Position numbers and translations under genes: made by a program | Shown: positions 6,801 through 37,347 of the stretch, piece after piece | Layout of the letters: each line of letters begins with the position of its first letter | How positions within the stretch are numbered: position 1 is the first letter of the stretch | The notes under the pieces: generated by a model | Seen by the model: only the letters and a program-made list of their open reading frames with translations | The model's database searches: none | Told to the model about the DNA's origin: nothing | IMG/VR virus record: IMGVR_UViG_3300033146_000459 | Location: 1 to 39,088 of that record | Origin: a virus | Taxonomy: Duplodnaviria > Caudoviricetes | Strand: one strand, 5' to 3' | DNA: 39,088 nucleotides

Positions 6801-9398
6801 ATGGGAGTTACATACGGTAGTTCAAGCAGATCATCTAGTTCTAAAAAATCATCTAGTTCAAGAAAATCATCTAGTTCAAGAAAATCATCTAGTTCATCAA
6901 GCAGATCTAGTGGTCCAGTAACTACATCTTCACTTAAAAGTAGGGCGGGACAAAAATCATATGACGGAGGTAAAACTTGGTCAGGTGGTAGTTCTTCAAG
7001 TAGTTCTTCGAGTAGTTCTTCAAGGAGTAGTTCTAGTTTAACTTCTCATCAAAAAGCTAATATAGCTGCTTTAGAGGCACGAGGAGATATGGCTGGTGCA
7101 AACAAGCTTAGAAGTGCAATGGGAGTTTCATCGAATGGTTCCTCAAGTTCTTCTAATAGTACATATAATTCAAGGGGGACGAGTGGTAGAACTGGAATTT
7201 CAAGCAATGTTACTTATATGAATCATGGATACTATGGTAGTCCATCGACTTTAAACGGGGTAGCTAATGCTGATTCTTTAAATAAATGGAACGCAAAAAA
7301 AACAATTATACAAGAAAGTGAAGCTAGAATGAGAGCACAGGGAGCTAGATTCGCAGATGACCCTAATTATTCTGGTCCAGATAAAGGTTCTTATTCAACT
7401 AATAGAGGAATGGATGGTAAGGGTTCTAGAGCTTATAAAAATGGAGAATATCAAACTTCATATACGCCAGAGGGGGATAAGTTTTACGAAAGTAAATGGG
7501 AACAAACAGATGGGGGAGGAATGAATCCACGTATGAATGAATTAAGTGGACAACAGTATGAGTTTTCTGATAAAAACAGAGTAGAAGATGATGTGTACGG
7601 AACATACCAAACAGGACAAGATAATAAATTAGCAGGAGTAGATTTTACTAATTACCAAAAGGGACTAGCTAATGTAAGTAAAAATTTTGGATTTGATATA
7701 GAAGATACTGGTATTGATATGGGAGAATTAGAATCTCACGTTAAAAATCTAGCCTTAGAAAAAGGGGTAGATATTACAAATGAAAATGTTTTATTAAAAG
7801 CTGCTCATGAAATAGCTGTTGGAACAGCGGAGAGAAACCTACAGTTTGCTATGGCTACTAGTGCAATGTCTAGCGAGGTGGCTCAATCAGATTACGATTT
7901 GACAATAATGCAGTTAAATAGAAGAGCTAATAAAACAGAAGGTAATCTTGAAGATCAGGCTAATCTCTTAGAAAGAGCCTATGAAAATCAAGCAGCTCAA
8001 TTAGAATATTTAGTTGACGCAGATGTAGTGATGTTGGAACAAGGTAAAAACAATGCAATACGAAGAGCTAAACTAATGTTTGGAGCTGATCTAACAAGTT
8101 CCACAACCGGATTAGAGTTTTTATCTAATATAGAACAATCCTACGAGGATAAGATTAGAAGCACAAGACAAGACTATACTTTTAAATTAGAAGGTATAGG
8201 TTTACAATATGAAGGATCGCAGTTGAAAATAGCAGCGATGTACGATGATATTAATATGAAAGCTACTGAAACTATTGAAAATGCTTATCAGACTTTGACT
8301 AAAGTGAAACAAGAAGCTTATATGCAATCAATGGGAGATATAAATACTTATTATACAGCAGCAAGACAAGCTGACTTAAGTTATATAGAATCTACATTTT
8401 CAGCAATGAAAGAAGCTAGATTGGAACAGGAACAAGCTCAAAACTTAGTAATGAAACAAGAACAACATAATTTAGTTATGCAAAAAGGATGGCAAACATT
8501 AGAAAGTGGAGGTTATAAGAATGTGGCTGATCGAGCACTTTTGGGCATTGATACTGTGTTAGAAGGTCATTCAGGAACTTTAGCTGATAGAAACAATAAT
8601 CCAGGTAATTTAAGAGATCCAAAAACAGGAGAGTTTAGACAGTTTGAAAGTCCACAGGCAGGTTTTACAGCAATGGTTCAAGATCTTACTGCTAAATTAA
8701 CAGGGAATAGTCCAGCCATTAGAAACAAACTAGGTAGAAATGCTAAAACTTTATTAGATGTTATAAGTGTTTATGCACCTAAAGAAGATAATAACGATCC
8801 TAATAGTTATGCAAATGCAGTAGCTAATGCAATGGGAGTTAGTCCTAATGAACCAGTAGCTAATTTAATACCGAAAGTAAATGAGTTAGCAAAAGCAATG
8901 GCAAAACACGAAGGATTTACTGGGGAGATATTGTTCGCTAAAGATTTAAAAGATAACGATTCGTCTTATCCAGGACTCACCGATGAACAAGCTATTAATG
9001 ATATCATGTCAGGTAATATGACTTATGCTCAAATGAATGATCTTTATAATGAAAAACCTCATTTAAGAAAGAAAGTCGAAGAGAAACAAATAGAAGGAAT
9101 GTCAACAGGAATATTCGAAAGTTATTTAGAGCATATAGATAAATCTGTTGAAGAGATAATAGAATATAATTCTGGATTAGGTAAGAATGATACGCCGGCA
9201 GTTTCTATAAAGGATATATTAGATGCACCAGAAGAATTACAGGAGCAAATTAAATTAAAAGCTATTCAAGTGAGAAATGAAATCAGTCAAAAATATCAAG
9301 ATGAAGGAACTGGAGGTATGTGGTTCACAGATGAAAGAGCCGCAAGAAAACAAAGGGAATCATTACAAGAATTAATTAATCAATTAAATGCATTATAA
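6801..9398 (+). CDS. Putative ejection protein: Ser-rich N-terminus, coiled coil, lysozyme-like domain
   Basis: RNNNPGNLR...F..PQAG...YAPKEDNNDPNSY...AMAKHEG virion muramidase-like motif at ~8580-8920. Confidence 0.65.
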   Translation: MGVTYGSSSRSSSSKKSSSSRKSSSSRKSSSSSSRSSGPVTTSSLKSRAGQKSYDGGKTWSGGSSSSSSSSSSSRSSSSLTSHQKANIAALEARGDMAGANKLRSAMGVSSNGSSSSSNSTYNSRGTSGRTGISSNVTYMNHGYYGSPSTLNGVANADSLNKWNAKKTIIQESEARMRAQGARFADDPNYSGPDKGSYSTNRGMDGKGSRAYKNGEYQTSYTPEGDKFYESKWEQTDGGGMNPRMNELSGQQYEFSDKNRVEDDVYGTYQTGQDNKLAGVDFTNYQKGLANVSKNFGFDIEDTGIDMGELESHVKNLALEKGVDITNENVLLKAAHEIAVGTAERNLQFAMATSAMSSEVAQSDYDLTIMQLNRRANKTEGNLEDQANLLERAYENQAAQLEYLVDADVVMLEQGKNNAIRRAKLMFGADLTSSTTGLEFLSNIEQSYEDKIRSTRQDYTFKLEGIGLQYEGSQLKIAAMYDDINMKATETIENAYQTLTKVKQEAYMQSMGDINTYYTAARQADLSYIESTFSAMKEARLEQEQAQNLVMKQEQHNLVMQKGWQTLESGGYKNVADRALLGIDTVLEGHSGTLADRNNNPGNLRDPKTGEFRQFESPQAGFTAMVQDLTAKLTGNSPAIRNKLGRNAKTLLDVISVYAPKEDNNDPNSYANAVANAMGVSPNEPVANLIPKVNELAKAMAKHEGFTGEILFAKDLKDNDSSYPGLTDEQAINDIMSGNMTYAQMNDLYNEKPHLRKKVEEKQIEGMSTGIFESYLEHIDKSVEEIIEYNSGLGKNDTPAVSIKDILDAPEELQEQIKLKAIQVRNEISQKYQDEGTGGMWFTDERAARKQRESLQELINQLNAL
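6828..6897 (+). repeat. 18-bp tandem repeat (AAATCATCTAGTTCAAGA-like, ~4 copies) encoding KSSSSR
   Basis: Read directly in the sequence. Confidence 0.85.
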
Positions 9399-12300
9399 TG
9401 TCAATTTTTGGAGATATAAGGAACATGTTCAAAGAAGAAGATGAGGAACAGGATTATTTAAACGATGTCACTACAGATGTTTATAATAAACTAGGAGACA
9501 GAGGAAAGCAAGTTTATAACGAACAGATAGTTAAAAGAGATACACTTAGTATTCCACAGAACATAGCAAATAACGCAGGTAGTATAGGAAGCTGGAGTAT
9601 TAGTCAAGGTATTCAATCCGGTGGCTCTATGAATGATCTAGTGAATATAGCTTCTAGAACCACACCCAAGGATAATATAGCTAGTTATGCGGGTATGGGA
9701 TTTGGTGGTATGTTGAAAAAAGATAAAAACTTTGGAATAAAAGCAAAGGCTTCTGTAGATACTATATCTAATGAAATTAACGATTGGCTTGGTGATTCAG
9801 TTGAGTACGAGGGATTCGCAGATGGTCCTCAAGATTTAACTAGACGAGCATTTGTTAATTTTTCGGGTATATATAATACAGGTACGGAATACACAAAAAA
9901 TTTAAAGAAAACTAGTTATCTAGAATTACTAGATGAAACGTACGATATAGCAAAGAAATTAAATCCATTAGATAGGTTTACACCATCAGTCGATAAACCT
10001 TTCACTAAAATGGGTAAATGGTTGGGTATAGAGAATAAACCAATGGAAGATTATCTCAGTAAAGAAGCTAATGCAAAAGTTGATAACTTTTTAAATGCTG
10101 TACAAAGTGAAACAAAAGATTTTCAAACTGCTTATAGGGGTAAGGATAATGCTTGGACTTTCGTAGGTGATGTAGTTGGTAGTTTGGCACAATACGCGAC
10201 TATAGGAACTATAACTGGTTCGCCTACAGCAGTAAGTGTATTTTCAGGTTTACAAGGAGCTGATCAAGTTTTAGAAATCTTGGATGGTACCGATATGACA
10301 CCAGCAGAAAAAGCAAGTGTTTCTACGATAGGTGGGATAATGAATGCATGGATAGAACAATTCGGAGGTGTTAAATTCGGGGATTATAATATATTAAAAT
10401 ACGCACCAAAAGGAAGTAATATGTTACAAACTTTTTCTAAGATGAAGGGAGCAGTTCTTTTAAAGAAGTTTAGTAATATATTTACAAAAGTAATGTTACC
10501 AGAATCTATGGAGGAAGTAGCGCAGAGTTCCGTAATGGATGCCATACAAAAAATATACACAGATAAAGAACTTGGTTTTAATACTCCTGAGTATTGGAAA
10601 GGAAAAGGTATGGAAGCTTTAGGAGGAGCAGTAGGTGGTATATTCGGAGGTGGTATGAGTTTTATGTCTAATCAAGTTACAAGAAGAGGTATAAAAAAAT
10701 CACTTAAAAAGAATTTAATTAAAAATGGTTTTGAAGAAGCTGATGCTAATTTTATTGCTGATGATATGGTAAGACAGTTTGAAACTAACGAGAATAACGA
10801 GAATAAAGAAAGTGAATACTTAAATATAGCTATCAAAAATAGAATAGAAAACAGCTTACGAGAAGATGGTCCTCAAATGAAGATGAGTGTTGAAGAAGAA
10901 AGTGGAACCACTTTAAAAACCCTTGAAAAATTAAAGGGAAGAAAGATCGTATCTAAACAGTTTATTTTAGACTTGACTAATTCTGGAGATATCAAGCAGG
11001 TTGAAAGGGATATGATCAGAAAGGAACTAGAAGGAATGCCTGATAAGATAAATATTGAAGAGTTTACAAATAGAGTTAAAACGAATTTAATTCCTTTATA
11101 TAGGAGTGGAGAGGGAGAAGGACCTAGTTTAATGTACGAAAACGTTGCTTTGCAAGACGAAGAAAGGGGGGACGTTGAAAATTATAACGCCCACGTATAT
11201 GAAAGTCCTATTGAGAATTCGGCAGGAGGGGTTCATTTTGATATGGATTTAAACCCTAATTATTTTGCGCATACTCGAGTTGAAGATATGGCAGACGGAG
11301 AAACAAGGAGAGTAATTGAAATACAATCTGATTTATTTCAAAAGGGAGGGTTAGAAAAAAAGATAAGACCTCAAGGAGAATTAGATAGAGGATACGATTA
11401 CGATTATAAGAAACTTAAAAGAAACTTGAGTATACATAGAGATCAGCTCGATGTTGATACAGTAGAGGCTTACGAAAAGGTTGAGGAGCAAAGAAATAAA
11501 CTTAAACCATATCGTGATACATATCACGAAAGAATTATAAGAGAAGAAATAAAACAAGCAGCTCAGGACGGTAAAAGTAAAATTCAAATACCAGTTGGGA
11601 AAACAGCTATGAAAATAGAGGGATTATACCAAGAAGGAGATATTGCTGATTGGGAGATTGATAGAGGGGATGGATATGAACCCCTAGTTCCTAATATGCT
11701 AGAGGAAGGATTAAAGATAATGGATCGCAGTAATGACCATTGGATAATAACGCAAGTCGGAATAAGAGGAGAGTTCCGTGCGGTTCCTTTTGAGACACGA
11801 GAAAGTTACATAACTCAAATAAGAGACTACCATGAAATGATGGGTACAGAGGCAGATATGCCTACATCAGAAAGTGATATAGATGAAGCCATAAAAGAAA
11901 TGCAAGAAGAGACAGTGGGCTCCGAGGGGTTTAGTGTTCACCCAGGGGCCGTAAATATAGGCAGTCCTATTTATAGGTTCTATGAAAAAACAATTGGTAA
12001 GTTTGTAAAAAATAAATACAATGCTCAGAGGGTTACAGATGAGAGAGGAATAGAGTGGTGGGAGATTGATGTGAAAGAATCCTACGGAAAAGACCCTGTG
12101 CAAGCATTCAGGTTAGGACGCAAAGGAAAATCCAATGTTACTAAAAAAGAATTAATTGCTAAGTTGAATGAAATCCTACCTAAAGGAACTTTGACACTAA
12201 AAGTAGTAGAAGAAATATTAGAAGAAGGAAATTCAAAAGGAAATGTAAAAAAACTAGGTTCCTATTTTAATAAAATTATAACAGTATTGGGCGAGAATGG

Positions 12301-15300
12301 TTTAGTATCTGATCAAACTGGTTACCACGAAGCATTTCATCAAATATGGGATATGTCTTTAACTAGGCAAGAGAAAGCAGGGATTACAAGAGAAATTTAT
12401 GAAAAGTATCCTGAGAAGATTGAATCGTATTCTAAAAAATATAATTCAGGTGTTGCTCAAGAAGTACTGGCTGATTTATTTGCAGATTATATAAAAGGAC
12501 AAACTAATAACAAACCAACAACATTTACAGGTAAAATTTTAGAGTTCTTTGAGAAATTATTTGAATACTTCTCAAACATAGATACAGATAATATCGATGC
12601 AGTGTTTGACAAGATAGCTCAAGGAGAAATGGTATCACGTGAGACTAGGGACAGTGGAGGAGAGAAGTTCTCAAGCCTAGAAGATTTAACCAAGAGTCCT
12701 AACTTCAAGAGCTGGTTTGGTGATAGTAAAGTGGTGGATGATGAAGGGAATCCTTTAGTTGTTTATCATGGAACAAATCAAGAATTTTCAAATTTTGATA
12801 AGGGTATGTTGGGAAATATGACGAAAGCTTCAAGTGCAGAAAAAGGGTTTTTCTTTACAGATAGCAAAGGAGAAGCTAAATCCTATTCAGAATTAGCAGG
12901 AAGGACTCAGATTAGAAATCAAAAAGAATTTGATGCAAAGATGGATCAGTTGAATAATGAGTTAGACAACGCAACAAGGAACAGAAATTGGGATGAGCAA
13001 GAAAGGATCACAGAAGAAATAAGTGATTATGAAATATCTTTCACAAGGGAAGATGTTAAGAAAGGTCTGAAAGTATATGAAACATATTTAAGAATTGAGG
13101 ATTTAATGATAGTTGACTTTGGTGGTGAAGGAGCATTTGATAGTTCGACTGGTGGTATTTCAAAACTGATTATAGAGGCGAAGGCAAAAGGACACGATGG
13201 AATTATGTTGAAAAACATATTAGATTCTCCAGATTTTTCAGGTAAGCCTACAAATCATTATGTAGCTTTTGATCCTAACCAAATCAAGTCAGTAGATAAC
13301 AAAGGAGGATTTTCTATTTACAATGATAATATATATATGTCTACCTCCTCAGAACAACAAGGGATCTATAAAGAAGCGTTGAAATACGATAGTGCAGAGG
13401 AGTTTGTGGAGAGTCAGAGTAGTATAGCCCCTAATAAAAAAGGGTATAGTGATGAATTTAAAGGGAGAACTGAATATAAAGAAGCTATACAGGAATTACA
13501 AGAGAACACAGGAGAAGTCTTAGTTAAAGACACGATTGATATAAGTAAACTAGAAGCTACTCAAACAACCAAAGATATTGAAAGACTTACTAGAGTTAGA
13601 AAAGAGATAAATGATGGAATAAAAAATCCTTTAGTAGTTGAGTATCAGTCTCCTAATTTTTATACAGTTATGGATGGGAATACTAGGCTAGGAGTTTATA
13701 AAGAACTAGGAATTAAAAAAGTTCCTATTGTAGTGAATAAAAGTGGTGCAAAGAATATCAAAACCAAACAACAACTAACAGAAATCTACAACAAAGCACA
13801 CGAAGGGAAGATGATGAGTGTTGAAGAAGAGGTTAAGACTAAAAAAGAAACAGCACATGAAGAATATGAGAGATTACAAATAAAATTAAAAGAAATAGAT
13901 AATAACAGGAAAGAACTTGAATTGACTAAGGGAGAAGAGTACGTGAAGGTTATCACTAAACGCATGAAAGAATTAAAAGTTGGTAGAAGGTATACCAAAG
14001 AAGAATATGATACACAATTAAAAGATATCAAGAACTTTATAAGTAAAACTATTAAAATAGGTAAACTTGATAAACTTAATAAGCGTGAACTAAATAAACT
14101 TATTGCTGTGATGCGAGATACTACTTATACACCACAGAAACTAGAAAAGGCTTATAAAAGTATTGTGAAGATACAAGAGCGTTTAGATAAAGACTTATAC
14201 ACACAAAAAATAGATAAATTGATCAAACGTTCAACCCCGACAGTAACAAGCGGGAGAAAAACAGGTAAACTCGGACATAGCCAAAAGATGTTTGATTATA
14301 TCAATCTTAATAGAAATATGACTCAAGTTCACGTGGATGCGAGATTAGGGGCTATTATGGAAAGCGAGAATATTACACCGGAATCTATGGCTGAAAGTGT
14401 TTGGTTACAAATGATACCCACAAAAAAGATGAGCTTGGATCAACTCAAAAGCATATATGAGGAGTTATTGGTTCAATACGATAAAGGAAGAGCCGAACAA
14501 GATATAAAAGACTTTAATAGACAAAGTGAAAAACAATTAACAAAGGAAGCTGTTAAAGATCTACAAGAAGCTGATCCAAAAAGAAGACAAATCAGTGAAA
14601 ACAACTTTGGTAAGATTAAAAAAACTTATTTGAAAGTTAGAGATTTTATGAATGCTAATTTTGGTTTAGAATATTTACTAGATGTACTAGACGAATCTGA
14701 TAAAACCACTAAAGAATATGGTGGCTTAATGGTTAAGTTTAATGACAGGTTATTAAAAGCTCAAAACGAAAGAGAAGCTGGCTTAGAGAAGGTTAGTAAT
14801 ACTATAGCTAAAAAGGCTCAAGAAATATGGGGTAAAAAAGTAGCAGGAGCTTTTGTTAATAACAAGACAAAAAAAGTACAAGTAAATGGTGAATGGTTCA
14901 CTCAGAACGAATTAGCTAAACGATATCAAGAATTTAAAGATCCTACTTTAAATAAGACTTTTGAAGAAATGGGTTATACTCAAGAAAAGAAAGCTGCCAT
15001 GGTTAAAGCTTTAGATCCAAAGTTAAAAGAATTTTCTGATTGGTTAGTGAAAGACTTTTATCCAGCTTATTACGATAGGATCAATCCTGTTTACAGAGAA
15101 AAGTTTGGAATAGATATGCCGAAGAATAAATTTTATTCTCCTATCGCTAGGGTAGGTTTTGACACAGACGAGAATAGTCTAATGGCAGAAGATAATAGAG
15201 CAAGAGCTACTGCAAATAATAAATCTTTGAAATTGAGAATGGGAAGTTCTTTGGAATTAAAGAAATTGGATGTAGTTAATACAGTATCAAACCATATACA

Positions 15301-16636
15301 ACAAATGGAACACTTCATAGCTTTATCTGGATGGTCCTCGGAAGCACAAAGTGTATTCAGAGATCCACAAGTAGCTAAACTACTTAAAAGGAATCAAGGT
15401 GAAGATTTTTATAGTATGTTGATGGATGCGATTGACGCTTCTATCAATGACAAAAAAGATGGAAAAACTTATAAAGCTCTTGATACAATAAGGGGTAATA
15501 TTGCTCTAGGTATGACAAGTTTAAGTCCTACAATTTTTATAAAGCAGCTTACTTCTATACCAGCTATGTGGCAAGATGTTAAAATGATAGAGGCTATGAA
15601 ATATTCAGCAGTATTTTTAGCTAATCCGAGAAAAGCTTTCAAGGAATTAAAAGAAGCTAGTGCTATGTTTAGGCAAAGAGGAGGACATATAGACCGAGAT
15701 CTGCAAATAGCTTTGGGTAAGAACTTAGAATCGATTGTATCTAAGAAGACAACCATTAAAGATATAATGGGTATGCCTACGAAAGTTGGTGATCAGATAG
15801 CTATTGCCCTTGGTGGATACGCCGTATATAGAGCTACACTGGCTAAAACTGGTAGTAAAGATCAAGCAATGCAACAATTCAATAAATCTTATAATAGATC
15901 GCAGCAATCAGGAGCTATACAATATCAAAGTTTTATAGAGAGATCTGGAGGTAGTATAGGAAAGTTATTTTCTATGTTTATGAGTACACCAAAAGCTTAT
16001 ACATCTATAATGCTTAGTAATGTTAGAAATCTAAAGGCGGGTAGAATAAGTAAAAAACAATTTACTAAAACTTTTGTAATACAACAATTCTTGTTACCTA
16101 TGATATTTCAATTTATATCAAGTGGATTCAAATGGGATGACGAGGATATGATGTGGGCGGTTTTATTGTCACCATTGAGAGGATTTATAGGAGTTAGAAA
16201 TATAATCAATACAGCTGTTGATTGGTATACAGGAAAACCTTGGTGGAAAACTACAGCAAGTGGATTACCAGTTTTTTCTCCATTGTTGGATATGTTTGAT
16301 GGAATAGACGGATTACAAAAAGACGATATAAGTATGTCAGATATAATGATAGAAGTGGCTAAGATTATAGATTTTGGATTAACACCTATGTCGGGAATAG
16401 ATTTATCTAAAACTATAAAGACGGGAACTCAAATGCTTAAAGCTCCAGAGAATTGGAGATATGCACTAGGTTTTTCTAATTACACAGTAGATGGTCCAAA
16501 GAAAAAGAAAAATACCTCAAAAAAGAGCGATGATTATTCAAAATTCAATAAGTTTGCTAAGTTTAATAAATTCAATAAGTTTGCTAAGTTTGATAAATTT
16601 GCTAAGTTTAATAAGTTTAATAAGTTTAATAAATAA
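9398..16636 (+). CDS. Giant polyvalent virion/ejection protein (zincin metallopeptidase, ADP-ribosyltransferase-like, ParB-like modules)
   Basis: 2412 aa; HEAFH...EVLAD (~12326-12475); FKSWFGDSKVVDDEGNPLVVYHGT...GFFFT...YVAFDPNQIKS (~12700-13290); PLVV...VMDGNTRL...LGIKKVP (~13630-13730). Confidence 0.75.
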   Translation: MSIFGDIRNMFKEEDEEQDYLNDVTTDVYNKLGDRGKQVYNEQIVKRDTLSIPQNIANNAGSIGSWSISQGIQSGGSMNDLVNIASRTTPKDNIASYAGMGFGGMLKKDKNFGIKAKASVDTISNEINDWLGDSVEYEGFADGPQDLTRRAFVNFSGIYNTGTEYTKNLKKTSYLELLDETYDIAKKLNPLDRFTPSVDKPFTKMGKWLGIENKPMEDYLSKEANAKVDNFLNAVQSETKDFQTAYRGKDNAWTFVGDVVGSLAQYATIGTITGSPTAVSVFSGLQGADQVLEILDGTDMTPAEKASVSTIGGIMNAWIEQFGGVKFGDYNILKYAPKGSNMLQTFSKMKGAVLLKKFSNIFTKVMLPESMEEVAQSSVMDAIQKIYTDKELGFNTPEYWKGKGMEALGGAVGGIFGGGMSFMSNQVTRRGIKKSLKKNLIKNGFEEADANFIADDMVRQFETNENNENKESEYLNIAIKNRIENSLREDGPQMKMSVEEESGTTLKTLEKLKGRKIVSKQFILDLTNSGDIKQVERDMIRKELEGMPDKINIEEFTNRVKTNLIPLYRSGEGEGPSLMYENVALQDEERGDVENYNAHVYESPIENSAGGVHFDMDLNPNYFAHTRVEDMADGETRRVIEIQSDLFQKGGLEKKIRPQGELDRGYDYDYKKLKRNLSIHRDQLDVDTVEAYEKVEEQRNKLKPYRDTYHERIIREEIKQAAQDGKSKIQIPVGKTAMKIEGLYQEGDIADWEIDRGDGYEPLVPNMLEEGLKIMDRSNDHWIITQVGIRGEFRAVPFETRESYITQIRDYHEMMGTEADMPTSESDIDEAIKEMQEETVGSEGFSVHPGAVNIGSPIYRFYEKTIGKFVKNKYNAQRVTDERGIEWWEIDVKESYGKDPVQAFRLGRKGKSNVTKKELIAKLNEILPKGTLTLKVVEEILEEGNSKGNVKKLGSYFNKIITVLGENGLVSDQTGYHEAFHQIWDMSLTRQEKAGITREIYEKYPEKIESYSKKYNSGVAQEVLADLFADYIKGQTNNKPTTFTGKILEFFEKLFEYFSNIDTDNIDAVFDKIAQGEMVSRETRDSGGEKFSSLEDLTKSPNFKSWFGDSKVVDDEGNPLVVYHGTNQEFSNFDKGMLGNMTKASSAEKGFFFTDSKGEAKSYSELAGRTQIRNQKEFDAKMDQLNNELDNATRNRNWDEQERITEEISDYEISFTREDVKKGLKVYETYLRIEDLMIVDFGGEGAFDSSTGGISKLIIEAKAKGHDGIMLKNILDSPDFSGKPTNHYVAFDPNQIKSVDNKGGFSIYNDNIYMSTSSEQQGIYKEALKYDSAEEFVESQSSIAPNKKGYSDEFKGRTEYKEAIQELQENTGEVLVKDTIDISKLEATQTTKDIERLTRVRKEINDGIKNPLVVEYQSPNFYTVMDGNTRLGVYKELGIKKVPIVVNKSGAKNIKTKQQLTEIYNKAHEGKMMSVEEEVKTKKETAHEEYERLQIKLKEIDNNRKELELTKGEEYVKVITKRMKELKVGRRYTKEEYDTQLKDIKNFISKTIKIGKLDKLNKRELNKLIAVMRDTTYTPQKLEKAYKSIVKIQERLDKDLYTQKIDKLIKRSTPTVTSGRKTGKLGHSQKMFDYINLNRNMTQVHVDARLGAIMESENITPESMAESVWLQMIPTKKMSLDQLKSIYEELLVQYDKGRAEQDIKDFNRQSEKQLTKEAVKDLQEADPKRRQISENNFGKIKKTYLKVRDFMNANFGLEYLLDVLDESDKTTKEYGGLMVKFNDRLLKAQNEREAGLEKVSNTIAKKAQEIWGKKVAGAFVNNKTKKVQVNGEWFTQNELAKRYQEFKDPTLNKTFEEMGYTQEKKAAMVKALDPKLKEFSDWLVKDFYPAYYDRINPVYREKFGIDMPKNKFYSPIARVGFDTDENSLMAEDNRARATANNKSLKLRMGSSLELKKLDVVNTVSNHIQQMEHFIALSGWSSEAQSVFRDPQVAKLLKRNQGEDFYSMLMDAIDASINDKKDGKTYKALDTIRGNIALGMTSLSPTIFIKQLTSIPAMWQDVKMIEAMKYSAVFLANPRKAFKELKEASAMFRQRGGHIDRDLQIALGKNLESIVSKKTTIKDIMGMPTKVGDQIAIALGGYAVYRATLAKTGSKDQAMQQFNKSYNRSQQSGAIQYQSFIERSGGSIGKLFSMFMSTPKAYTSIMLSNVRNLKAGRISKKQFTKTFVIQQFLLPMIFQFISSGFKWDDEDMMWAVLLSPLRGFIGVRNIINTAVDWYTGKPWWKTTASGLPVFSPLLDMFDGIDGLQKDDISMSDIMIEVAKIIDFGLTPMSGIDLSKTIKTGTQMLKAPENWRYALGFSNYTVDGPKKKKNTSKKSDDYSKFNKFAKFNKFNKFAKFDKFAKFNKFNKFNK
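10882..10899 (+). repeat. 18-bp direct repeat, copy 1 (GATGAGTGTTGAAGAAGA)
   Basis: Identical to 13813-13830; both encode MSVEEE. Confidence 0.85.
13813..13830 (+). repeat. 18-bp direct repeat, copy 2
   Basis: Identical to 10882-10899. Confidence 0.85.
16541..16633 (+). repeat. 9-bp tandem repeat x10 encoding KF(N/A/D)
   Basis: AA(A/G)TT(T/C)(AAT/GCT/GAT) units running up to the stop codon. Confidence 0.95.
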
Positions 16637-17885: not shown

Positions 17886-17914
17886 TTTACTTTTTAAAAA
17901 AGATAAAGTATAGT
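17886..17914 (+). promoter_or_regulatory. Sigma70-like promoter TTTACT-N17-TATAGT
   Basis: Same -35 hexamer and spacing as four other + strand promoters. Confidence 0.7.
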
Positions 17915-18105: not shown

Positions 18106-18922
18106 TACTAATTTTTGGGCTGATCCTTACATCCAAGAGTTAAAAGCTGATGCGAAATATTTATTTCTTTATTTCTTAACTTGTGATCATAACAATATAG
18201 CAGGGATTTTTGAAGTAACTTTAAAAACAATGGAGTTCGAAACAGGGTTAAAAAGAAAAGATATAGAATTATATTTAGAGAAATTCAAAGAAGATAAAAA
18301 GGTGTTTTATTTTAATAATTGGATCTTTTTAAAGAATTTTATAAAAAACCAATCTTTAAATCCAAAAGTGACAAAGGGAATAGAAATAATTTTACAATCC
18401 CTACCAACGTCTATAGTAAAGCATTTATCCATAGATTATGATAGACTATATATAGACTATACATACTCTTCTATAAATACTAACTCTAATTCTAACTCTA
18501 ACTCTAACTCTAATTCTAATTCTAATTCTAACCCTAGGGAGGAAACTATTAAAAAAGAAATTAAGAAAACTATTAAGAAAGAAGAAGTTATTTATAAATA
18601 TTATCTGTCTGAGTTAAAACCGGATAGTCGGTACAATGAACCAAGTAGAACAAAACAATTTATAAAAGAGATTTTAAAAGAATATACTTTGGAAATATTA
18701 AAGGAATGTATTGATAATTATAAGAATTTAAAAGAAAACGAATACACAATGAAACCTAGTAATTTTTTCTCTAATAGTAAAAAGAAAGAAAAATATAGAA
18801 TGTTTGAGAATTATTTACCAGATAATGTGGGAATCATTAAAAAGGAAGCGATCCAGAAGAAACAAAATGCTACAGGCTTTGATCCGAATTTACCTATAAT
18901 AAAATCATCTAACAATTATTAA
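18083..18922 (+). CDS. Phage replication initiator (replisome organiser, N-terminal HTH)
   Basis: RRINTNFWADP...KYLFLYFLT...NIAGIF...MEFETG N-domain, (NS)n linker and helical C-domain. Confidence 0.8.
   Translation: MAKQRRINTNFWADPYIQELKADAKYLFLYFLTCDHNNIAGIFEVTLKTMEFETGLKRKDIELYLEKFKEDKKVFYFNNWIFLKNFIKNQSLNPKVTKGIEIILQSLPTSIVKHLSIDYDRLYIDYTYSSINTNSNSNSNSNSNSNSNSNPREETIKKEIKKTIKKEEVIYKYYLSELKPDSRYNEPSRTKQFIKEILKEYTLEILKECIDNYKNLKENEYTMKPSNFFSNSKKKEKYRMFENYLPDNVGIIKKEAIQKKQNATGFDPNLPIIKSSNNY
18409..18580. repeat. Candidate replication origin: ATAGA(C/T)TAT x3, (TAA(C/T)TC) x8, AT-rich tract
   Basis: Repeats at 18431, 18441, 18452; partial inverted copy at 18409; hexamer array 18481-18531. 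Confidence 0.55.
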
Positions 18923-18924
18923 TT

Positions 18925-19203
18925 ATGAGCACATTAACAAGAGTTGAAAAAGAAGATGTATCAACTAGCGAATGGCATCTAGCACTAGAAAAAACAAGAT
19001 GGGCAGGGAATCCACAACAATATTTAACAGCCAAAAAGGAATTAAATGATGGAGATGCTGGGTATATGTGGCATTGTTCATGCGGAGAATGGCAACCAAT
19101 AATTATAAGCCAAGAATTAGTAAAAGTAAAAGACAAAAATGGGTATATGGTAGATCATTATAAAAAAATTCCAAATATGCAGTGCAGAAAATGCAGGCAT
19201 TAA
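18925..19203 (+). CDS. Hypothetical protein with Cys pairs (zinc finger)
   Basis: CSC and CRKC motifs. Confidence 0.6.
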   Translation: MSTLTRVEKEDVSTSEWHLALEKTRWAGNPQQYLTAKKELNDGDAGYMWHCSCGEWQPIIISQELVKVKDKNGYMVDHYKKIPNMQCRKCRH

Positions 19204-19920: not shown

Positions 19921-19938
19921 TTATTCGTGAACTTGTTG

Positions 19939-19972
19939 AAAGAGTCCTTTTTGAAATAATAAGGGCTTTTTT
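19939..19972 (+). terminator. Intrinsic terminator
   Basis: AAGAGTCCTT...AAGGGCTTTT hairpin followed by T tract. Confidence 0.7.
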
Positions 19973-20022
19973 GTTTGGATATATATTCCTTATGATATTA
20001 GAATCATATATTTAAAAAGAAA

Positions 20023-20055
20023 GAAAAAAGAGATGGCTGTACCATCTCTATTTTT
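20023..20055. terminator. Bidirectional intrinsic terminator
   Basis: AAAAA-AGAGATGG-CTGTA-CCATCTCT-ATTTTT, perfect 8-bp stem. Confidence 0.8.
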
Positions 20056-20068
20056 CGTAACACTAACA
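20023..20068 (-). ncRNA. Predicted ~45-nt small RNA (GUUAGUGUUACGAAAAAUAGAGAUGGUACAGCCAUCUCUUUUUU)
   Basis: Bounded by a minus-strand promoter (20074-20102) and the terminator hairpin; too short for a credible ORF. Confidence 0.55.
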
Positions 20069-20073
20069 AATGC

Positions 20074-20102
20074 ACTATAGCTTAAAAGTCTCAAAAAGTA
20101 AA
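20074..20102 (-). promoter_or_regulatory. Minus-strand promoter TTTACT-N17-TATAGT
   Basis: AGTAAA at 20097-20102, ACTATA at 20074-20079, 17-nt spacer. Confidence 0.65.
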
Positions 20103-20122
20103 GAAAACAAAAAAAACTTTCG

Positions 20123-20174
20123 AAAAGGGTTTACTTTTATAAAAATATTATATATAATCAATTCGTAACATTAA
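20123..20174 (+). promoter_or_regulatory. Promoter TTTACT-N17-TATAAT with leader TTCGTAACATTAA
   Basis: -35 at 20130-35, -10 at 20153-58; homologous to the 23758 and 27672 elements. Confidence 0.8.
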
Positions 20175-20182
20175 TTAGATAT

Positions 20183-20539
20183 ATGAAAAAAGCAGAAATA
20201 GAGTTAGACGCTCTTAAAATGGTGCTAAGAGGAATAGAAGCAGTTGGAGTGGATGGAATTACCGATTTAGTACAAGAGTTGATTAGAAGTAATCAGAGAC
20301 TTCAATTAGATATGTTAATAAATGACGCTAACTATAATCGTAGGTGTAATCCAATAAAAAAAGGATTACAACCATATTCAAAGTGTTGTCCAAGTATAGA
20401 AATGCCTAATTGGGATCAATCAGATATATGTCCTGGATGTAAAGAACACACAACGATTGAATGGGTTGATGAAAAAGGAGAGTTAGTTCCAGATGAAATA
20501 GCATTTATGGATCCCAACGAGGATAATACTTATAATTAA
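20183..20539 (+). CDS. Hypothetical protein with C-terminal zinc ribbon
   Basis: SKCC...ICPGCKEH. Confidence 0.65.
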   Translation: MKKAEIELDALKMVLRGIEAVGVDGITDLVQELIRSNQRLQLDMLINDANYNRRCNPIKKGLQPYSKCCPSIEMPNWDQSDICPGCKEHTTIEWVDEKGELVPDEIAFMDPNEDNTYN

Positions 20540-23757: not shown

Positions 23758-23814
23758 AAAAAGGGTTTACTTTCATAAAAATTCAGTATATAATAAATTC
23801 GTATCATTAACAAA
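23758..23814 (+). promoter_or_regulatory. 57-bp promoter/leader repeat, copy A
   Basis: TTTACT 23766-71, TATAAT 23789-94; 3 mismatches versus 27672-27728. Confidence 0.9.
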
Positions 23815-23818
23815 ATAT

Positions 23819-24100
23819 ATGGAAAAATTATCACAAACACAAAAGACAGTAAAAGAAATTGTTGTAAAGTTCCTTAAAGACAGAAAAGGGAGACCGTTCT
23901 TTATTTATAATTTGTATAAATACGCGATACGGGTTCACGATTCCCATTTAAAGTACAACACTTTTTATAGAGAATGTTGGAGATTAGAAAAGGATGGTAA
24001 ATTAGGAATGATGAAAAGCGGATTTGACAATCTATATAAAGAGAAACTAGAATTATCATTCTTTCAAAAGGTTTCTGATTGGTTCTTTGGGCAAAATTAA
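23819..24100 (+). CDS. Small basic protein, putative winged-helix; likely paralogue of 27734..28045
   Basis: Shared K.I...V.DS....TF.R...R pattern and the same promoter cassette. Confidence 0.55.
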   Translation: MEKLSQTQKTVKEIVVKFLKDRKGRPFFIYNLYKYAIRVHDSHLKYNTFYRECWRLEKDGKLGMMKSGFDNLYKEKLELSFFQKVSDWFFGQN

Positions 24101-24266: not shown

Positions 24267-25193
24267 ATGAAAAAATATAAAAAAGTAGATATAAACTACG
24301 AATTACAAAACAATCAAAGATGGGCTAGACCTACAGAGGTTTTATTTATCAAGCTCAAGAAGATCCTAAAGATAGTATTAATCTTAATCTTACTTGGTGG
24401 GCTAGTAAATTTGTTTATGCCTAGTGAAAAGGTAGAATTAACAAAGGAGCAAATTGATACAAAAATATCTGAAAGATATGAGGAGATATACTCGGAACGA
24501 TTTGAAGAAGAGCAGATCCCTATAGAAGCTGAGGAAATAACAAGTATGAAAGAAAGAGTACAGATCAGACTTGAAGACTTGAAAGCAGGGTATTGGAAAG
24601 AAGCTAAGGAAGAAACTCTAGGCGGTGTTAAAGAATATATAGAAGCAAGTCCAGAAGTGATTTCGTTTATAATAGATTTTGACAAGTTGGAAAGTCAAAA
24701 ATATGCAAGCATAGATGATTTTCTAGAGAAGAATTATCCAAACTCAAGGCTAATAGGTCATAATATAAAAGCTCGTTGTAAAAAGAATGAGATGAGCGAG
24801 AATCAATGCCTGTTGACATTAGGAATAGCAGGAAAAGAAAGTGCTTTTGATGAAGCGTATGTAAAAAATGATTGGAGTCCAGCAGTTATGGAGGGGAAAG
24901 CGAGAAATAACATGTTTGGATTAAAAGCCAACAGGAGATATATAGATACTAAATGTGGAGAAGATAAAGAGTGTAGAGCAAAGTATAGTTCTATTCCATA
25001 TGATGGATTTGCCTTTGTTCCTTTCAATACATTCGAATCAGGACTAGACTGGTTTATGAATGATACATTGAAAAAGGGGTATCCGAGTGTTACTAATCCA
25101 TATCAGATGATAACTTTTTATAATAACAATCCAAAGTGGGCAGATGATGTTCAACACTTTATGAATATATTAAAACCATTATTAAATTATTAA
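24267..25193 (+). CDS. Membrane-anchored lysozyme-like (GH73/glucosaminidase-like) protein
   Basis: N-terminal TM; LGIAGKESAF, NNMFGL, F.TFESG, W..DV motifs. Confidence 0.6.
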   Translation: MKKYKKVDINYELQNNQRWARPTEVLFIKLKKILKIVLILILLGGLVNLFMPSEKVELTKEQIDTKISERYEEIYSERFEEEQIPIEAEEITSMKERVQIRLEDLKAGYWKEAKEETLGGVKEYIEASPEVISFIIDFDKLESQKYASIDDFLEKNYPNSRLIGHNIKARCKKNEMSENQCLLTLGIAGKESAFDEAYVKNDWSPAVMEGKARNNMFGLKANRRYIDTKCGEDKECRAKYSSIPYDGFAFVPFNTFESGLDWFMNDTLKKGYPSVTNPYQMITFYNNNPKWADDVQHFMNILKPLLNY

Positions 25194-27673: not shown

Positions 27674-27728
27674 AAAGGGTTTACTTTCATAAGAATTCAG
27701 TATATAATAAGTCCGTATCATTAACAAA
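27672..27728 (+). promoter_or_regulatory. 57-bp promoter/leader repeat, copy B
   Basis: TTTACT 27680-85, TATAAT 27703-08. Confidence 0.9.
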
Positions 27729-27733
27729 GAAAT

Positions 27734-28045
27734 ATGGAAAGAAAGAAAAGAACACCAGCGAAAAAAATAATCTTTAGCTGGATTGAGAGGACTCCGAATG
27801 TATGGGTTCACCCGTACGAAATGGTAGAGTTTGGAAAACAAGTATTCGATTCAATGTTTTTATCTCACACCTTTCATCGTCAGATGTTACGAATGGCTGG
27901 AGAACAAACAAATGAGTTAGAAAAGAAAGTAGACCAAAATGGATATGTGATGTTTAGAAAAGCAAGAACAGATAATATCAAAGAGATATTAAAGGTAAAT
28001 CCTTACAAGGAGGTTAAGAAAAATAATAATCAATCTTTATTTTAA
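27734..28045 (+). CDS. Small basic protein, putative winged-helix; likely paralogue of 23819..24100
   Basis: Shared residues and promoter cassette. Confidence 0.55.
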   Translation: MERKKRTPAKKIIFSWIERTPNVWVHPYEMVEFGKQVFDSMFLSHTFHRQMLRMAGEQTNELEKKVDQNGYVMFRKARTDNIKEILKVNPYKEVKKNNNQSLF

Positions 28046-28055
28046 TAAAAAACAT

Positions 28056-28475
28056 ATGAGATTCAAAAAACTTAGAGATGTAAAATCTCCAACAAAAGCT
28101 TATAGTGGTGACGCTGGTATTGACATTTACTCACCGAGTTCTGTGCATATTAATCCAGGTCAAACTATTCAAGTGAAATTAGGTATCGCAATCGAGATAG
28201 AAAGGAATCAAGTTGCTATAATGAGTGAAAGATCAGGTATGGCAATAAAGTATGGTATAACATCTATTGGTAATATTATTGATTCCGGTTATAGAGGTGA
28301 AATATCAATTATGTTGTTCAATTCGTCCACTAATTCTGTTTCATTTAATACAGGGGATAAAATTGGTCAAATAGTTATATGTCAATTAGGGCTTGAATCT
28401 TCTTTCGTGCAAGAAGTATACGAGTTGTCAGAATCAGAAAGGGGAGAAAAAGCACATTATTCATCAGGTAAATAA
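28056..28475 (+). CDS. dut: Trimeric dUTPase
   Basis: AGIDI, RSG, IIDSGYRGEI, GDKIGQ, SERG...SSG motifs I-V. Confidence 0.92.
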   Translation: MRFKKLRDVKSPTKAYSGDAGIDIYSPSSVHINPGQTIQVKLGIAIEIERNQVAIMSERSGMAIKYGITSIGNIIDSGYRGEISIMLFNSSTNSVSFNTGDKIGQIVICQLGLESSFVQEVYELSESERGEKAHYSSGK

Positions 28476-28489
28476 TTTAATATTAAGAT

Positions 28490-29254
28490 ATGTCAAAGAA
28501 AAATAATTACAATACAACACAACTTGATCCAGATAAAGCATTTGAAAAACATATTTACCATAGAGATATGTTTGCTCATTATTTGAGGTGGACTCACGCT
28601 CTTAAAAGAATAAAAGCCGATCAAAATGTTTTAGATTTCGGATGTGGGACAGGTGCATTAGCAGAGGTTTTCTATAGGAATAGATTTAAATGTGCTAGTT
28701 ATATCGGTTTGGATATAAAGAAGTTATCAATCGAAAAAGCTAATACAAAATTTGAAAAAGTAAATTGGGTAAATTTTTATCAAAAAGATTTGGTCAAAGA
28801 TTCTGTAAGTGAGTTCGAGAATACAAAATGGGATATGATTACGTCATTTGAAGTGATTGAACATATTGGAAAACAAAATATTGATCGATTCCTTAATAAT
28901 GTGAAATCCTTAATGGATAAAAATACAACGTTTTTGATGTCAACACCTAATTACGATGGAGATATTGGTGCCGCTGGTAATCACACATATGATTCTGGAG
29001 ATGGCGAAGGAGTTCAAGAACAAGAATTTGATCATTTAGAACTTGGTTTAATATTAAACAAGCATTTTAATATAGTTGAAAAATACGGAACATTTTCTAG
29101 TCAAAAAGATTACAAACACTTAATGAATGAATGGCAAACAAATATGTTTAATGAATTAAGTAAATATTATGATGTTGATTTACTTTCTGTTATGATGGCA
29201 CCTATATTTCCAGAAGAGTCAAGAAACTGTTTGTGGGTATTAAAACTTAAATAA
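28490..29254 (+). CDS. Class I SAM-dependent methyltransferase (small-molecule/O-MTase type)
   Basis: VLDFGCGTG, YIGLDI, SFEVIEHI, STPN; no DPPY/NPPY or PC DNA-MTase catalytic motif. Confidence 0.85.
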   Translation: MSKKNNYNTTQLDPDKAFEKHIYHRDMFAHYLRWTHALKRIKADQNVLDFGCGTGALAEVFYRNRFKCASYIGLDIKKLSIEKANTKFEKVNWVNFYQKDLVKDSVSEFENTKWDMITSFEVIEHIGKQNIDRFLNNVKSLMDKNTTFLMSTPNYDGDIGAAGNHTYDSGDGEGVQEQEFDHLELGLILNKHFNIVEKYGTFSSQKDYKHLMNEWQTNMFNELSKYYDVDLLSVMMAPIFPEESRNCLWVLKLK

Positions 29255-29259
29255 TTAAT

Positions 29260-29532
29260 ATGAATATACTTAAAAAAGCAGATCAGATTATTAATAATAG
29301 GTCTGAGGAAAAAGAAAGAGAATATGGTGACTTTAATGAATCGATGGAAAGAGCTGCTAGAATATCATCAGATTTATGTAAAAAGGAGATTACCCCGGAA
29401 GATATGTTCAAATGCATGCTTGGATTAAAATTAAGTAGACTAGCTAATTCACCAAAAGAAGATACGTTACTTGATATTTGTGGGTATGCAGCAGGTTTAA
29501 ATAATTATATAAATAAAAATAACAATAATTAA
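29260..29532 (+). CDS. DUF6378-like all-alpha protein (putative dNTP pyrophosphohydrolase)
   Basis: ILKKADQII...REYGDF..SMERAA...MLGLKLSR...DTLLDICGYA. Confidence 0.75.
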   Translation: MNILKKADQIINNRSEEKEREYGDFNESMERAARISSDLCKKEITPEDMFKCMLGLKLSRLANSPKEDTLLDICGYAAGLNNYINKNNNN

Positions 29533-30413
29533 TGAAAAAATTTACAAATTTTAATGATCTCTATATTGATTCAACCCAGGATATATGTAAACACGGGAAA
29601 CCTAGTTCACCTAGAAACATGAAATGTTGGGAGAAATTAAATTACTGTTTGCAGTTAACGGATACATCACAATCACTGTGTACTATAAAAAATAGAAAAT
29701 TAAATTACGCATTTAATATCATAGAAAAACTTGAATATTTATATGGAGAACAAGATCCAGATAGAATTTGTTTCTATAACAAGAATTTTAGAAATTTCAT
29801 TAATGAAAACACAGGGAAGTTTGATGGTGCTTATGCTCCTAGAATCAAAAGGCAAATTATGTATATTTATGATTTACTTAAAAGAGATCCTGATACTAGA
29901 CAAGCTATTATAAATATTAACAACGAATCAGATAAGCACGAATCAAAAGATGTACCATGCACTATATCATTTCAATTTATCCTTAGAGAAGGAAAACTAC
30001 ATATGACTACTTATATGCGTAGTAATGATATATTGTGGGGAACTCCTTATGATATTAACGCTTTCTGTTTCATCCAGAGTGCTCTCGCTTTGTGGTTAGA
30101 TGTAGAAACTGGCACATATACACACTTCGTTGGTTCTATGCATGCCTATGATGATTTTATAGATACATTAGAGAAACTAGATGGTTCGGAGGTAGTCGCA
30201 AATGAGGATAAAAAATGGGATATAAAAGATATACATGAATCTTACAATGAACTCGAAACGTTTTTTCAATTAGAAAAAGGATTGAGAGAGAATAATAATT
30301 ATATTTCACCTGATGGTTTTTTAAGATCAAAGACATTGATAAGTTTTTATAATATATTACACGCTTATTGTATTAAGAAAAATAACAAGAAAACATTCAG
30401 AGAAGATCAGTAA
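29532..30413 (+). CDS. Thymidylate synthase-family enzyme, probable dCMP hydroxymethylase/methylase
   Basis: DTRQA, catalytic PC, MRSND, and GTPYD with Asp where dUMP-specific TS has Asn; HFVGSMHAY. Confidence 0.8.
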   Translation: MKKFTNFNDLYIDSTQDICKHGKPSSPRNMKCWEKLNYCLQLTDTSQSLCTIKNRKLNYAFNIIEKLEYLYGEQDPDRICFYNKNFRNFINENTGKFDGAYAPRIKRQIMYIYDLLKRDPDTRQAIININNESDKHESKDVPCTISFQFILREGKLHMTTYMRSNDILWGTPYDINAFCFIQSALALWLDVETGTYTHFVGSMHAYDDFIDTLEKLDGSEVVANEDKKWDIKDIHESYNELETFFQLEKGLRENNNYISPDGFLRSKTLISFYNILHAYCIKKNNKKTFREDQ

Positions 30414-30419
30414 ATAGAT

Positions 30420-30448
30420 TTTACTTTTGGGCAAAAATAGTATAAAAT
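30420..30448 (+). promoter_or_regulatory. Promoter TTTACT-N17-TAAAAT
   Basis: Same -35 and spacing as the other promoters. Confidence 0.65.
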
Positions 30449-30473
30449 AATATTATATAATAATAAACGGAAT

Positions 30474-30701
30474 ATGAAAGATAAACTAGATCACAAAGAA
30501 CCGAGAGATGGATACCTGTATTCATTAAGTCAAGTTATCGAATTAGGTTTTTTAGGAGTTACAACTAAAGTCACCTTAAGAAGGATGATACATAATAAAG
30601 AGATCCCTGCTGTAAATATCAGTAGAAAAGAAGGTTTTAATATGTATAGAATCAATGGAACAGAGATCAAAAGATATTTGTCAAGCCGAATAGTAGATTA
30701 A
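30474..30701 (+). CDS. Excisionase/MerR-like HTH DNA-binding protein
   Basis: YSLSQV...TLRRMIHNKEIPA...YRI...I..YL. Confidence 0.75.
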   Translation: MKDKLDHKEPRDGYLYSLSQVIELGFLGVTTKVTLRRMIHNKEIPAVNISRKEGFNMYRINGTEIKRYLSSRIVD

Positions 30702-31131: not shown

Positions 31132-31689
31132 ATGACTAATCAAAAGAAAGCTGAAAAAGCTATTATGAAAAATGCTAATAATCATTTGCAAAAATGTATT
31201 AAGCAACACACACAAGCATCTAAAGACAAAACATCTAAATCTATGATGGGTAATAAGAACGCTGAGAAATACAATGAAGAAGAATGTAATAGATTAATGG
31301 ACCTATGTATAGTAAAGGCTGAAGAAGTTATAGAAGACGATAAGAGTTTTGAATATAAGCATGACTTTATTGGAGAAGTATACAGATCAGCTGGAATATA
31401 TCACCATCTAGTTGAAGAATGGATAGGGAGATTTCCGTATCTGCAAGAGAAGAAAGACAGATTGAAGAAGCAAATGGAGCTAAACTGTTATTACAATAGT
31501 AAAAAGGGAAAGATCAATACTGCTATCGGAATTGTGAACCTAAAGAGCAATCATAGGTGGTCTGATAGAGTTGATATGACAAGTGGAGATAAGAAGATTG
31601 AAACAACTGTTATCAAATCTTTGGATGAAGCAAAGGCCTTGACACGAGATCAATTGGATGAAAGTTTAAGAAACTTCTTTAATAAGTAG
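31132..31689 (+). CDS. terS: Terminase small subunit
   Basis: GNKNAEK and IVNLKSNHRWSDRVDMTSGDKKI motifs; directly before terL. Confidence 0.75.
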   Translation: MTNQKKAEKAIMKNANNHLQKCIKQHTQASKDKTSKSMMGNKNAEKYNEEECNRLMDLCIVKAEEVIEDDKSFEYKHDFIGEVYRSAGIYHHLVEEWIGRFPYLQEKKDRLKKQMELNCYYNSKKGKINTAIGIVNLKSNHRWSDRVDMTSGDKKIETTVIKSLDEAKALTRDQLDESLRNFFNK

Positions 31690-36942: not shown

Positions 36943-37347
36943 ATGGATTTCAAAATCAAAGATGGTGAGCAAGTTAGAACAACTTTAGCGACTATAGCTT
37001 CTGCAACAGTAATTGAAGCAGGTGATCTAGTCACTTTGGCTTCTGGTTTGATCGTAAAAGCAGTTGCAGCTTCTGCAGCAGTGGCTTACGCACCAAATGG
37101 TTCAGCTGATGGGGAAACAGAAATAGTTGTTACAGTAGGTAATGACTTCACTCTAGTAGGAACAGCAGATGCAAATTTCGTTGTAACTCAAAAAGGAACA
37201 GAAGTAGATCTAGTAGGTACTACAACTCAATTGATTGATGTTGGTGCTTCATCTACAAACGTTCTAAAAGTAGGAATTGGATCAGATGCGGGTACAGTAG
37301 GTGCAGCAACTAATGTAACAGTTAAGATCAATCTTCCTTTATTCTAA
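36943..37347 (+). CDS. Capsid decoration/cement protein
   Basis: IEAGDLVTLASG; Ala/Thr/Val-rich beta protein immediately before the capsid gene. Confidence 0.65.
   Translation: MDFKIKDGEQVRTTLATIASATVIEAGDLVTLASGLIVKAVAASAAVAYAPNGSADGETEIVVTVGNDFTLVGTADANFVVTQKGTEVDLVGTTTQLIDVGASSTNVLKVGIGSDAGTVGAATNVTVKINLPLF

Follow-up and report, generated by a model that had tools for sequence, protein, structure and literature searches.

A candidate trans-acting small RNA antisense to three early leaders in a tailed phage, and predicted bipartite counterparts in distant phages

The phage genome and the locus

The window, that is, the whole stretch of DNA analysed, is an entire linear virus record of 39,088 bases in which a terminal repeat is absent; CheckV gives it 51%, and the order of its genes suggests a nearly complete, circularly permuted genome. 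All of its long ORFs lie on the plus strand and include tail and lysis genes, a replication initiator, RecT and an exonuclease, nucleotide enzymes, terminase, and head genes. A Shine–Dalgarno-like word is found at 1 of 50 gene starts. An earlier reading of this DNA from its letters (the sequence-only reading) had seen no obvious CI or integrase, and searches for tyrosine integrase, HTH_3, and resolvase agreed, each matching none of five genomes (the window and four near-complete relatives). No antirepressor was found among 51 window proteins scanned in PHROGs, and no tRNA or tmRNA in a search of the window. Because Saccharibacteria contigs are among those that carry relatives of the window RecT (2 of 11 genome loci), our guess is a Patescibacteria-type host. 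Elsewhere, positions 9398–16636 encode a 2412-aa protein with PHROG matches of unknown function only, and positions 28056–30413 hold dUTPase, methyltransferase, DUF6378, and thymidylate-synthase-like genes that may form a cluster for base modification.

The features on which the analysis centers are as follows.

19938..19972, plus strand: hairpin and T tract (z −2.9), presumably ending the upstream holin-like gene
20021..20049, minus strand: intrinsic terminator-like hairpin and U tract; 8 Watson–Crick pairs, hairpin 20049–20029 (z −5.1)
20023..20067, minus strand: predicted 45-nt sRNA, putative +1 at G20067
20057..20067, minus strand: unpaired 11-nt seed GUUAGUGUUAC, from fold and pairing; complementarity reaches 14 nt (to 20054)
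20074..20102, minus strand: P0, predicted promoter-like site; TTTACT 20102–20097, 17-nt spacer, TATAGT 20079–20074
20130..20185, plus strand: P1 cassette; promoter at 20130, leader core GTAACATTAAT (20165–75), AUG 20183
23766..23821, plus strand: P2 cassette; promoter, leader core GTATCATTAAC (23801–11), AUG 23819
27680..27736, plus strand: P3 cassette; promoter, leader core GTATCATTAAC (27715–25), AUG 27734
20183..20539, plus strand: target gene 1; its 118-aa product has Cys pairs and an acidic tail, and RecT and exonuclease follow
23819..24100, plus strand: target gene 2; 93-aa predicted winged-helix protein, FUR/BlaI-like fold
27734..28045, plus strand: target gene 3; 103-aa predicted winged-helix protein

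A minus-strand promoter, arm, and terminator

The minus-strand promoter described by the sequence-only reading, back-to-back with the plus promoter at 20130, is present at the positions it gave, as is the perfect 8-bp terminator hairpin; the predicted RNA (20067–20023) comes to the expected 45 nt. P0 belongs to the phage's own promoter class, TTTACT-17-TATART, of which the window holds four plus-strand and two minus-strand copies; the chance of a TTTACT/TATART promoter at exactly this site is ~1.4e-5. The same reading had called this the only minus-strand transcription unit. Among 29 promoter-like sites in the window, P0 alone has a terminator within 70 nt downstream; however, a second class-perfect minus-strand site, TTTACT-17-TATAAT (19102–19130), lies inside ORF 18925–19203, pointing toward the replication gene and carrying no terminator. 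The hairpin at 20021..20049 can also be read on the plus strand, as a weaker terminator, although the hairpin at 19938..19972 would already close the holin-like gene and so make the second one superfluous for that gene.

No gene lies downstream of P0, and the predicted product consists of arm and terminator only. The +1 is placed seven bases after the −10 element, where the 5′ hairpins of most of the relatives described below also start; with this placement, the core motif occupies +1 to +11 in all four promoters. In a single-sequence minimum-free-energy fold the sRNA forms one free arm and the terminator, with GUUAGUGUUAC unpaired and GAA paired with the U tail. Features general to trans-acting sRNAs are found here at the sequence level: an own promoter and intrinsic terminator, no ORF, and an unpaired seed complementary to distant translation-initiation regions. 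Rfam gave no match at gathering score in the window and three chance-level matches at E ≤ 5, none of them on the P0 unit. No published description of the RNA was found in the literature searched; the candidate lists of PMC10690425 could include members.

Complementarity to a duplicated leader cassette

Copies of the arm's motif lie at 20054, 20162, 23798, and 27712/27714. As CGTAWCAYTAA it occurs four times in the window—once in the minus-strand unit and three times 8–9 nt before an AUG—and nowhere else there. The signal resides in the copies with 0–1 mismatch, since a plain count allowing three mismatches is not above chance (15 versus 16.75). The leader positions and the AUGs at 20183, 23819, and 27734 given by the sequence-only reading were confirmed. 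From −35 to AUG, the P1–P3 cassettes are 77–84% identical and represent copies of one duplicated promoter cassette. The leaders are therefore not three independent matches and amount to approximately one target type.

The complementarity between arm and leaders noted by that reading is real, but the likely duplex is 11 bp: the TTC that the reading included lies upstream of the putative +1, and in the fold the GAA is paired with the U tail. The P1 core contains two G:U pairs, P2 and P3 each contain one G:U and one U–U mismatch, and P3 additionally carries an A–C mismatch. This duplex (+1 to +11) has predicted binding energies of −11.4, −10.1, and −10.1 kcal/mol for P1, P2, and P3, respectively, and of −7 to −10 kcal/mol when upstream sequence is included; its strength is modest. 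Four of the seven differences between arm and targets are G:U-compatible, including both of those for P1. In the window, the paired zone covers −18 to −8 relative to the AUG, extending as far as −21 in messages that read through. Complementarity runs on to −3 of the non-template strand, and pairing with P1-born messages does not account for the conserved TTC upstream of the putative +1.

This complementarity is specific. A target scan returned the P1–P3 leaders as the arm's three best targets among 101 start regions (z −5.5), a ranking based on long-body duplex energies that missed most of the bipartite RNAs described below. The arm ranks first of all intergenic positions as a match to the three promoter-proximal leaders, and 7 of 100,000 shuffled arms scored equally well. 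The P0 unit was also the best of 29 promoter-plus-terminator units in 87 loci, in a scan that took the first 22 nt only with a strict −35 and likewise missed most bipartite RNAs. Two extra seed matches are probably chance: one at 27877–27893, inside target gene 3, reads like the arm apart from a single inserted base and could pair with the 5′ end of the message in which it lies, and the other, at 31785, lies inside terL.

Target genes and candidate protein regulators

The operons behind the leaders encode RecT, exonuclease, and NinB, and dUTPase, methyltransferase, and thymidylate synthase. The earlier labels of recombination and nucleotide genes are thus roughly right, but the lysozyme assignment corresponds to a weak Pfam match (E 0.035). 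The product of target gene 1 gave no family match and looks by eye like a zinc finger. For that of target gene 2, an Atlas structure gave TM 0.72 to a FUR cluster, and a homologue search returned only the protein itself. The product of target gene 3 has two homologues and an AlphaFold pLDDT of 74, with the top Foldseek rows being mostly winged-helix regulators (best E 7e-3). The two predicted winged-helix proteins do not align with each other.

A further regulator candidate is the HTH_17 gene at 30474; it encodes 75 aa and follows a TTTACT promoter that carries no leader tag (30420–30701). The replication-operon promoter at 17886 is likewise untagged. With predicted winged-helix and HTH_17 genes, the phage has candidate protein regulators, which the RNA would control rather than replace. 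Inside target gene 2 lies a strong promoter-like site, TTGACA-18-TAGAAT (24024–24053), which would free the next genes from control by the RNA.

Searches for relatives of the window phage

No close relatives of the window phage were found, the best identities being 62% for RecT and 62% for terminase. A promoter-plus-motif pattern search of viral contigs gave 0 matches, a single-protein RecT scan no close relative, an exonuclease scan one distant locus, and a winged-helix alignment search no relatives. Terminase relatives have no more than three genes in common with the window, and none of 9 such records held a matching unit. No convincing short divergent unit was seen in 80 metagenome RecT loci or upstream of RecT in 39 further-checked loci; many loci were too short to hold one.

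In several RecT-relative phages the early cassettes are repeated and bear a leader motif particular to the phage. A reverse-complement scan of seven such records recovered an intergenic terminator-ended unit in five (G058, G055, G062, G049, and G064); the G051 unit fell outside the top six and was then located at the syntenic place, and G044, which also has its cassettes repeated, showed no clear antisense unit. A wider scan found the unit of L167. A scan by the upstream replication protein yielded 10 loci in 9 distinct phages, two of them new (L333 and L334); in both of these held-out loci, reached by protein only, a predicted unit antisense to the own motif is present.

Bipartite anti-leader RNAs in nine distant phages

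In all, promoter-to-terminator units were predicted in nine distant phages that share RecT, each unit being antisense to the leader motif of the phage that carries it; these motifs differ. The predicted units are:

L330:10455–10560 (G051), gene strand: bipartite unit
L331:8965–9065 (G058), gene strand: bipartite unit
L167:1178–1260, gene strand: bipartite unit
L333:10420–10545, gene strand: bipartite unit
L334:2578–2670, gene strand: bipartite unit
L335 (G055), L332 (G049), L336 (G064), and L337 (G062), gene strand: bipartite units, given by locus

These predicted RNAs of ~90–120 nt share a layout comprising a 5′ hairpin, often with an anti-AUG loop, an anti-leader segment, a second hairpin, and a terminator. 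They lie right after the replication gene or the next ORF, by the early cassette that precedes a Cys/acidic ORF and RecT. The antisense segment occupies +16 to +47 of the predicted transcript, away from the promoter, and the paired zone spans −25 to −1 from the AUG. Seven of the nine display the anti-AUG loop, whose sequence tracks the second codon. The leader motif of these relatives also stands before genes with no detected promoter. The structures come from single-sequence folds; automatic alignment and consensus folding of six members recovered the terminator only, and Rfam gave no match for the units in four loci scanned.

When ten RNAs, including that of the window, were set against ten leader sets, every RNA paired best with the leaders of its own phage, along all 10 rows and all 10 columns (mean 12.8 versus 7.5; 0 of 200,000 permutations), a matrix inflated by the six of nine relatives that were selected through complementarity. 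The three relatives found by position or protein consequently weigh most. Among 39 relative records obtained in full or almost in full, 6 hold the bipartite unit; the remainder gave candidates or nothing. A quick tree built from 73 RecT sequences groups six labelled members with L164, which is nearly a copy of G058, in a single clade (support 96) and leaves the window outside it; G058, L333, and L334 are not labelled rows in that tree.

The window RNA shares with these RNAs a segment antisense to its own leader motif ~6–25 nt ahead of the AUG (−21 to −8 in the window). In contrast to them, it is encoded on the divergent strand behind a holin-like gene, has half their length, and lacks the 5′ hairpin and anti-AUG loop. 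Because the window RecT falls outside the clade and its unit is divergent, shorter, and loop-less, the relatives support the window RNA by analogy only: they speak for the use of such RNAs in this phage group and not for covariation of the window arm with its leaders.

Two further observations concern the relatives themselves. At L334:1374 and L337:9540 (G062), a tagged leader has the replication initiator as its first downstream gene; there, the bipartite RNA would directly control the initiator, as in plasmid copy control. The early promoters of G051, G055, G058, and L167 are near-palindromic (TTTACTTT...AAAGTAAA) and promoter-like on both strands, and the word just upstream of them is often what we take to be DnaA-box-like.

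A proposed anti-leader mechanism and its alternatives

The window feature, we propose, probably specifies an anti-leader sRNA that acts in trans to dampen the translation of early messages. A host sigma-70-type polymerase would fire P0 and produce the 45-nt RNA, the free 5′ end of which would pair with +1 to +11 of the P1–P3 messages, just upstream of the three start codons. This duplex could cover the 30S landing zone and hinder 30S loading on genes that lack Shine–Dalgarno sites. As the RNA accumulated, synthesis of the Cys/acidic protein and of the two predicted winged-helix regulators would fall, and perhaps that of downstream genes via coupling. Its role would most likely be that of a timer or a dose-feedback brake on early genes, a lysis–lysogeny switch having no support here. 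The multi-target sRNA of the sequence-only reading thus gains backing for its own-leader antisense character, from the window statistics and from nine distant phages, while transcription, pairing, repression, and any part in the life cycle are what we infer from the sequence. Its description as a switch standing in for CI is unsupported: nothing points to a temperate cycle, the record is linear, and candidate protein regulators are present.

An unlikely alternative makes the motif a DNA operator, located at +1 in all four promoters and recognised by the predicted winged-helix protein or proteins encoded at 23819 and 27734 in an autorepressive arrangement, with the P0 RNA as a by-product. The core begins 7 nt past the −10 element in all four promoters, conservation extends upstream of the putative +1, and candidate winged-helix genes, by predicted fold, stand directly behind two of the sites. 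The winged-helix genes behind P2 and P3 strengthened this explanation until the sites proved no more palindromic than intergenic background, and the palindrome argument was dropped: 10, 6, 8, and 6 of 17 positions are self-complementary, and of 721 background intergenic 17-mers, 51 reach 10 and 167 reach 8. Of the features expected of a winged-helix operator, the overlap with a (predicted) transcription start and the adjacent DNA-binding gene are therefore present, but the inverted-repeat site is absent. An operator also leaves unexplained a promoter whose sole product is the antisense motif, and in the relatives the reversed copy lies far from promoter elements and is split into two segments. 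The winged-helix profile matched none of 44 RecT-relative records, in a search run with no positive control. An antisense segment placed off the promoter, a loop that tracks the AUG, and a motif at promoterless genes all fit RNA pairing rather than an operator.

It is also quite unlikely that a real RNA pairs with the leaders and acts in some other way, by shielding 5′ ends and stabilizing messages, by early termination or decay, or by guiding a protein to the open promoter. Such actions would suit pairing predicted at the first 11 message bases and complementarity that continues to −3 of the non-template strand, and the available account of SviR describes an RNA that regulates different targets in different ways (10.1101/2022.04.08.487710). 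Against them, the paired zone coincides with the ribosome landing zone, 7 of the 9 relatives cover the AUG too, and no RNA-guided protein was recognised among 51 proteins (PHROGs) or 30 proteins scanned. Least probable by far is that the 20054 copy is the plus-strand leader of a 32-aa ORF (20070–20168) or a relic of cassette duplication, with the hairpin a second plus-strand terminator and P0 incidental: an ATG after the copy does open 32 codons, there is a weak plus-strand promoter-like site at 19976, and the hairpin can be read in either direction, but the ORF is low in complexity, crosses two promoters (P0 and P1), and follows a terminator, and a class-perfect P0 stands in exact register (chance ~1.4e-5).

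Comparison with known phage regulators

The anti-leader RNA proposed for the window is probably a variant of known phage antisense regulators such as c4 and SviR. C4 and P4 CI-type RNAs are multi-stem, processed molecules with target boxes that display loops for target binding. In the parts of the source available, c4 of phage P1 is described as a phage-encoded small RNA that represses synthesis of its own phage's regulatory protein in trans, acting as a processed 77-base RNA on the icd-ant operon (PMC8546580). Like c4, the window RNA is phage-encoded and predicted to act in trans by pairing near the start regions of its own regulator genes. It differs in consisting of a 45-nt arm and terminator, in facing three distant leaders, and in having no antirepressor, no Rfam match, and another fold; as judged from these features, it is not a C4-family member.

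SviR, from the Vibrio cholerae phage satellite PLE, provides a precedent for seed pairing to several own leaders with lowered translation (10.1101/2022.04.08.487710, as far as the source was available). Compared by description rather than by sequence, it differs from the window RNA in having two seeds, in also targeting the helper phage, in being satellite-borne, and in having been shown experimentally. In Cluster K mycobacteriophages, SAS is an asymmetric 13-bp motif ahead of non-structural gene starts, with a single opposite-orientation copy in four genomes; its authors left open whether the binder is RNA or protein (PMC3203893). SAS has a Shine–Dalgarno core and 11–19 copies, whereas the window motif has three leader copies, no such core, and its reversed copy in a promoter–terminator unit.

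Both sar and OOP are cis-encoded with long complementarity, and the known phage antisense regulators mostly serve one operon each. P22 sar, lambda OOP, and aQ are presented, in the part of the source available, as short phage antisense RNAs that lower regulator output at single targets, with aQ being cis-encoded with long complementarity (PMC12197685). The window RNA, in contrast to these as so described, does not overlap its targets, uses an 11–14-nt seed, and has several targets.

Implications

In a phage where neither CI nor integrase can be recognised, a 45-nt RNA matched to a tag that several early leaders share would amount to a compact means of controlling a regulon. A cross-specificity experiment is ready to hand in the ten self-specific RNA/leader sets, which could also reveal how bacteria that dispense with Shine–Dalgarno pairing select their translation starts and how such starts are blocked. 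The reversed SAS copy of the Cluster K mycobacteriophages becomes testable by the same logic.

More tentatively, and with more doubt than confidence, we suggest that in small tailed phages of Shine–Dalgarno-less hosts, possibly Patescibacteria, an RNA master repressor runs the early programme in place of CI, each phage having a private 9–14-nt leader tag and one RNA that reads it. If so, such phages would fall into phage-specific immunity groups; those in which the replication gene is the first target (L334 and G062) could have plasmid-like copy control and an unintegrated carrier state; and the window would hold a minimal 45-nt form placed above two winged-helix regulators.

Other candidate units

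Several other matches in the relatives (G041/L133, L143, L104, G068, G060, and L327) were rejected by eye as reverse strands of ordinary gene starts or genes. Candidate arm-plus-terminator units antisense to own leader words were seen in G046 near 18523, G056 near 31612, G061 near 27775, G036 near 24544, G004 near 7082, and G009 near 4564. The leader word of G056 and G061 resembles what we take to be a DnaA box and is therefore ambiguous. In G059 (in L199), a window-like unit near 37142 lies between two terminators; its promoter is weak, and its short arm is antisense to AAACAAACAA, a word followed by an ATG at 9 of its 12 occurrences.
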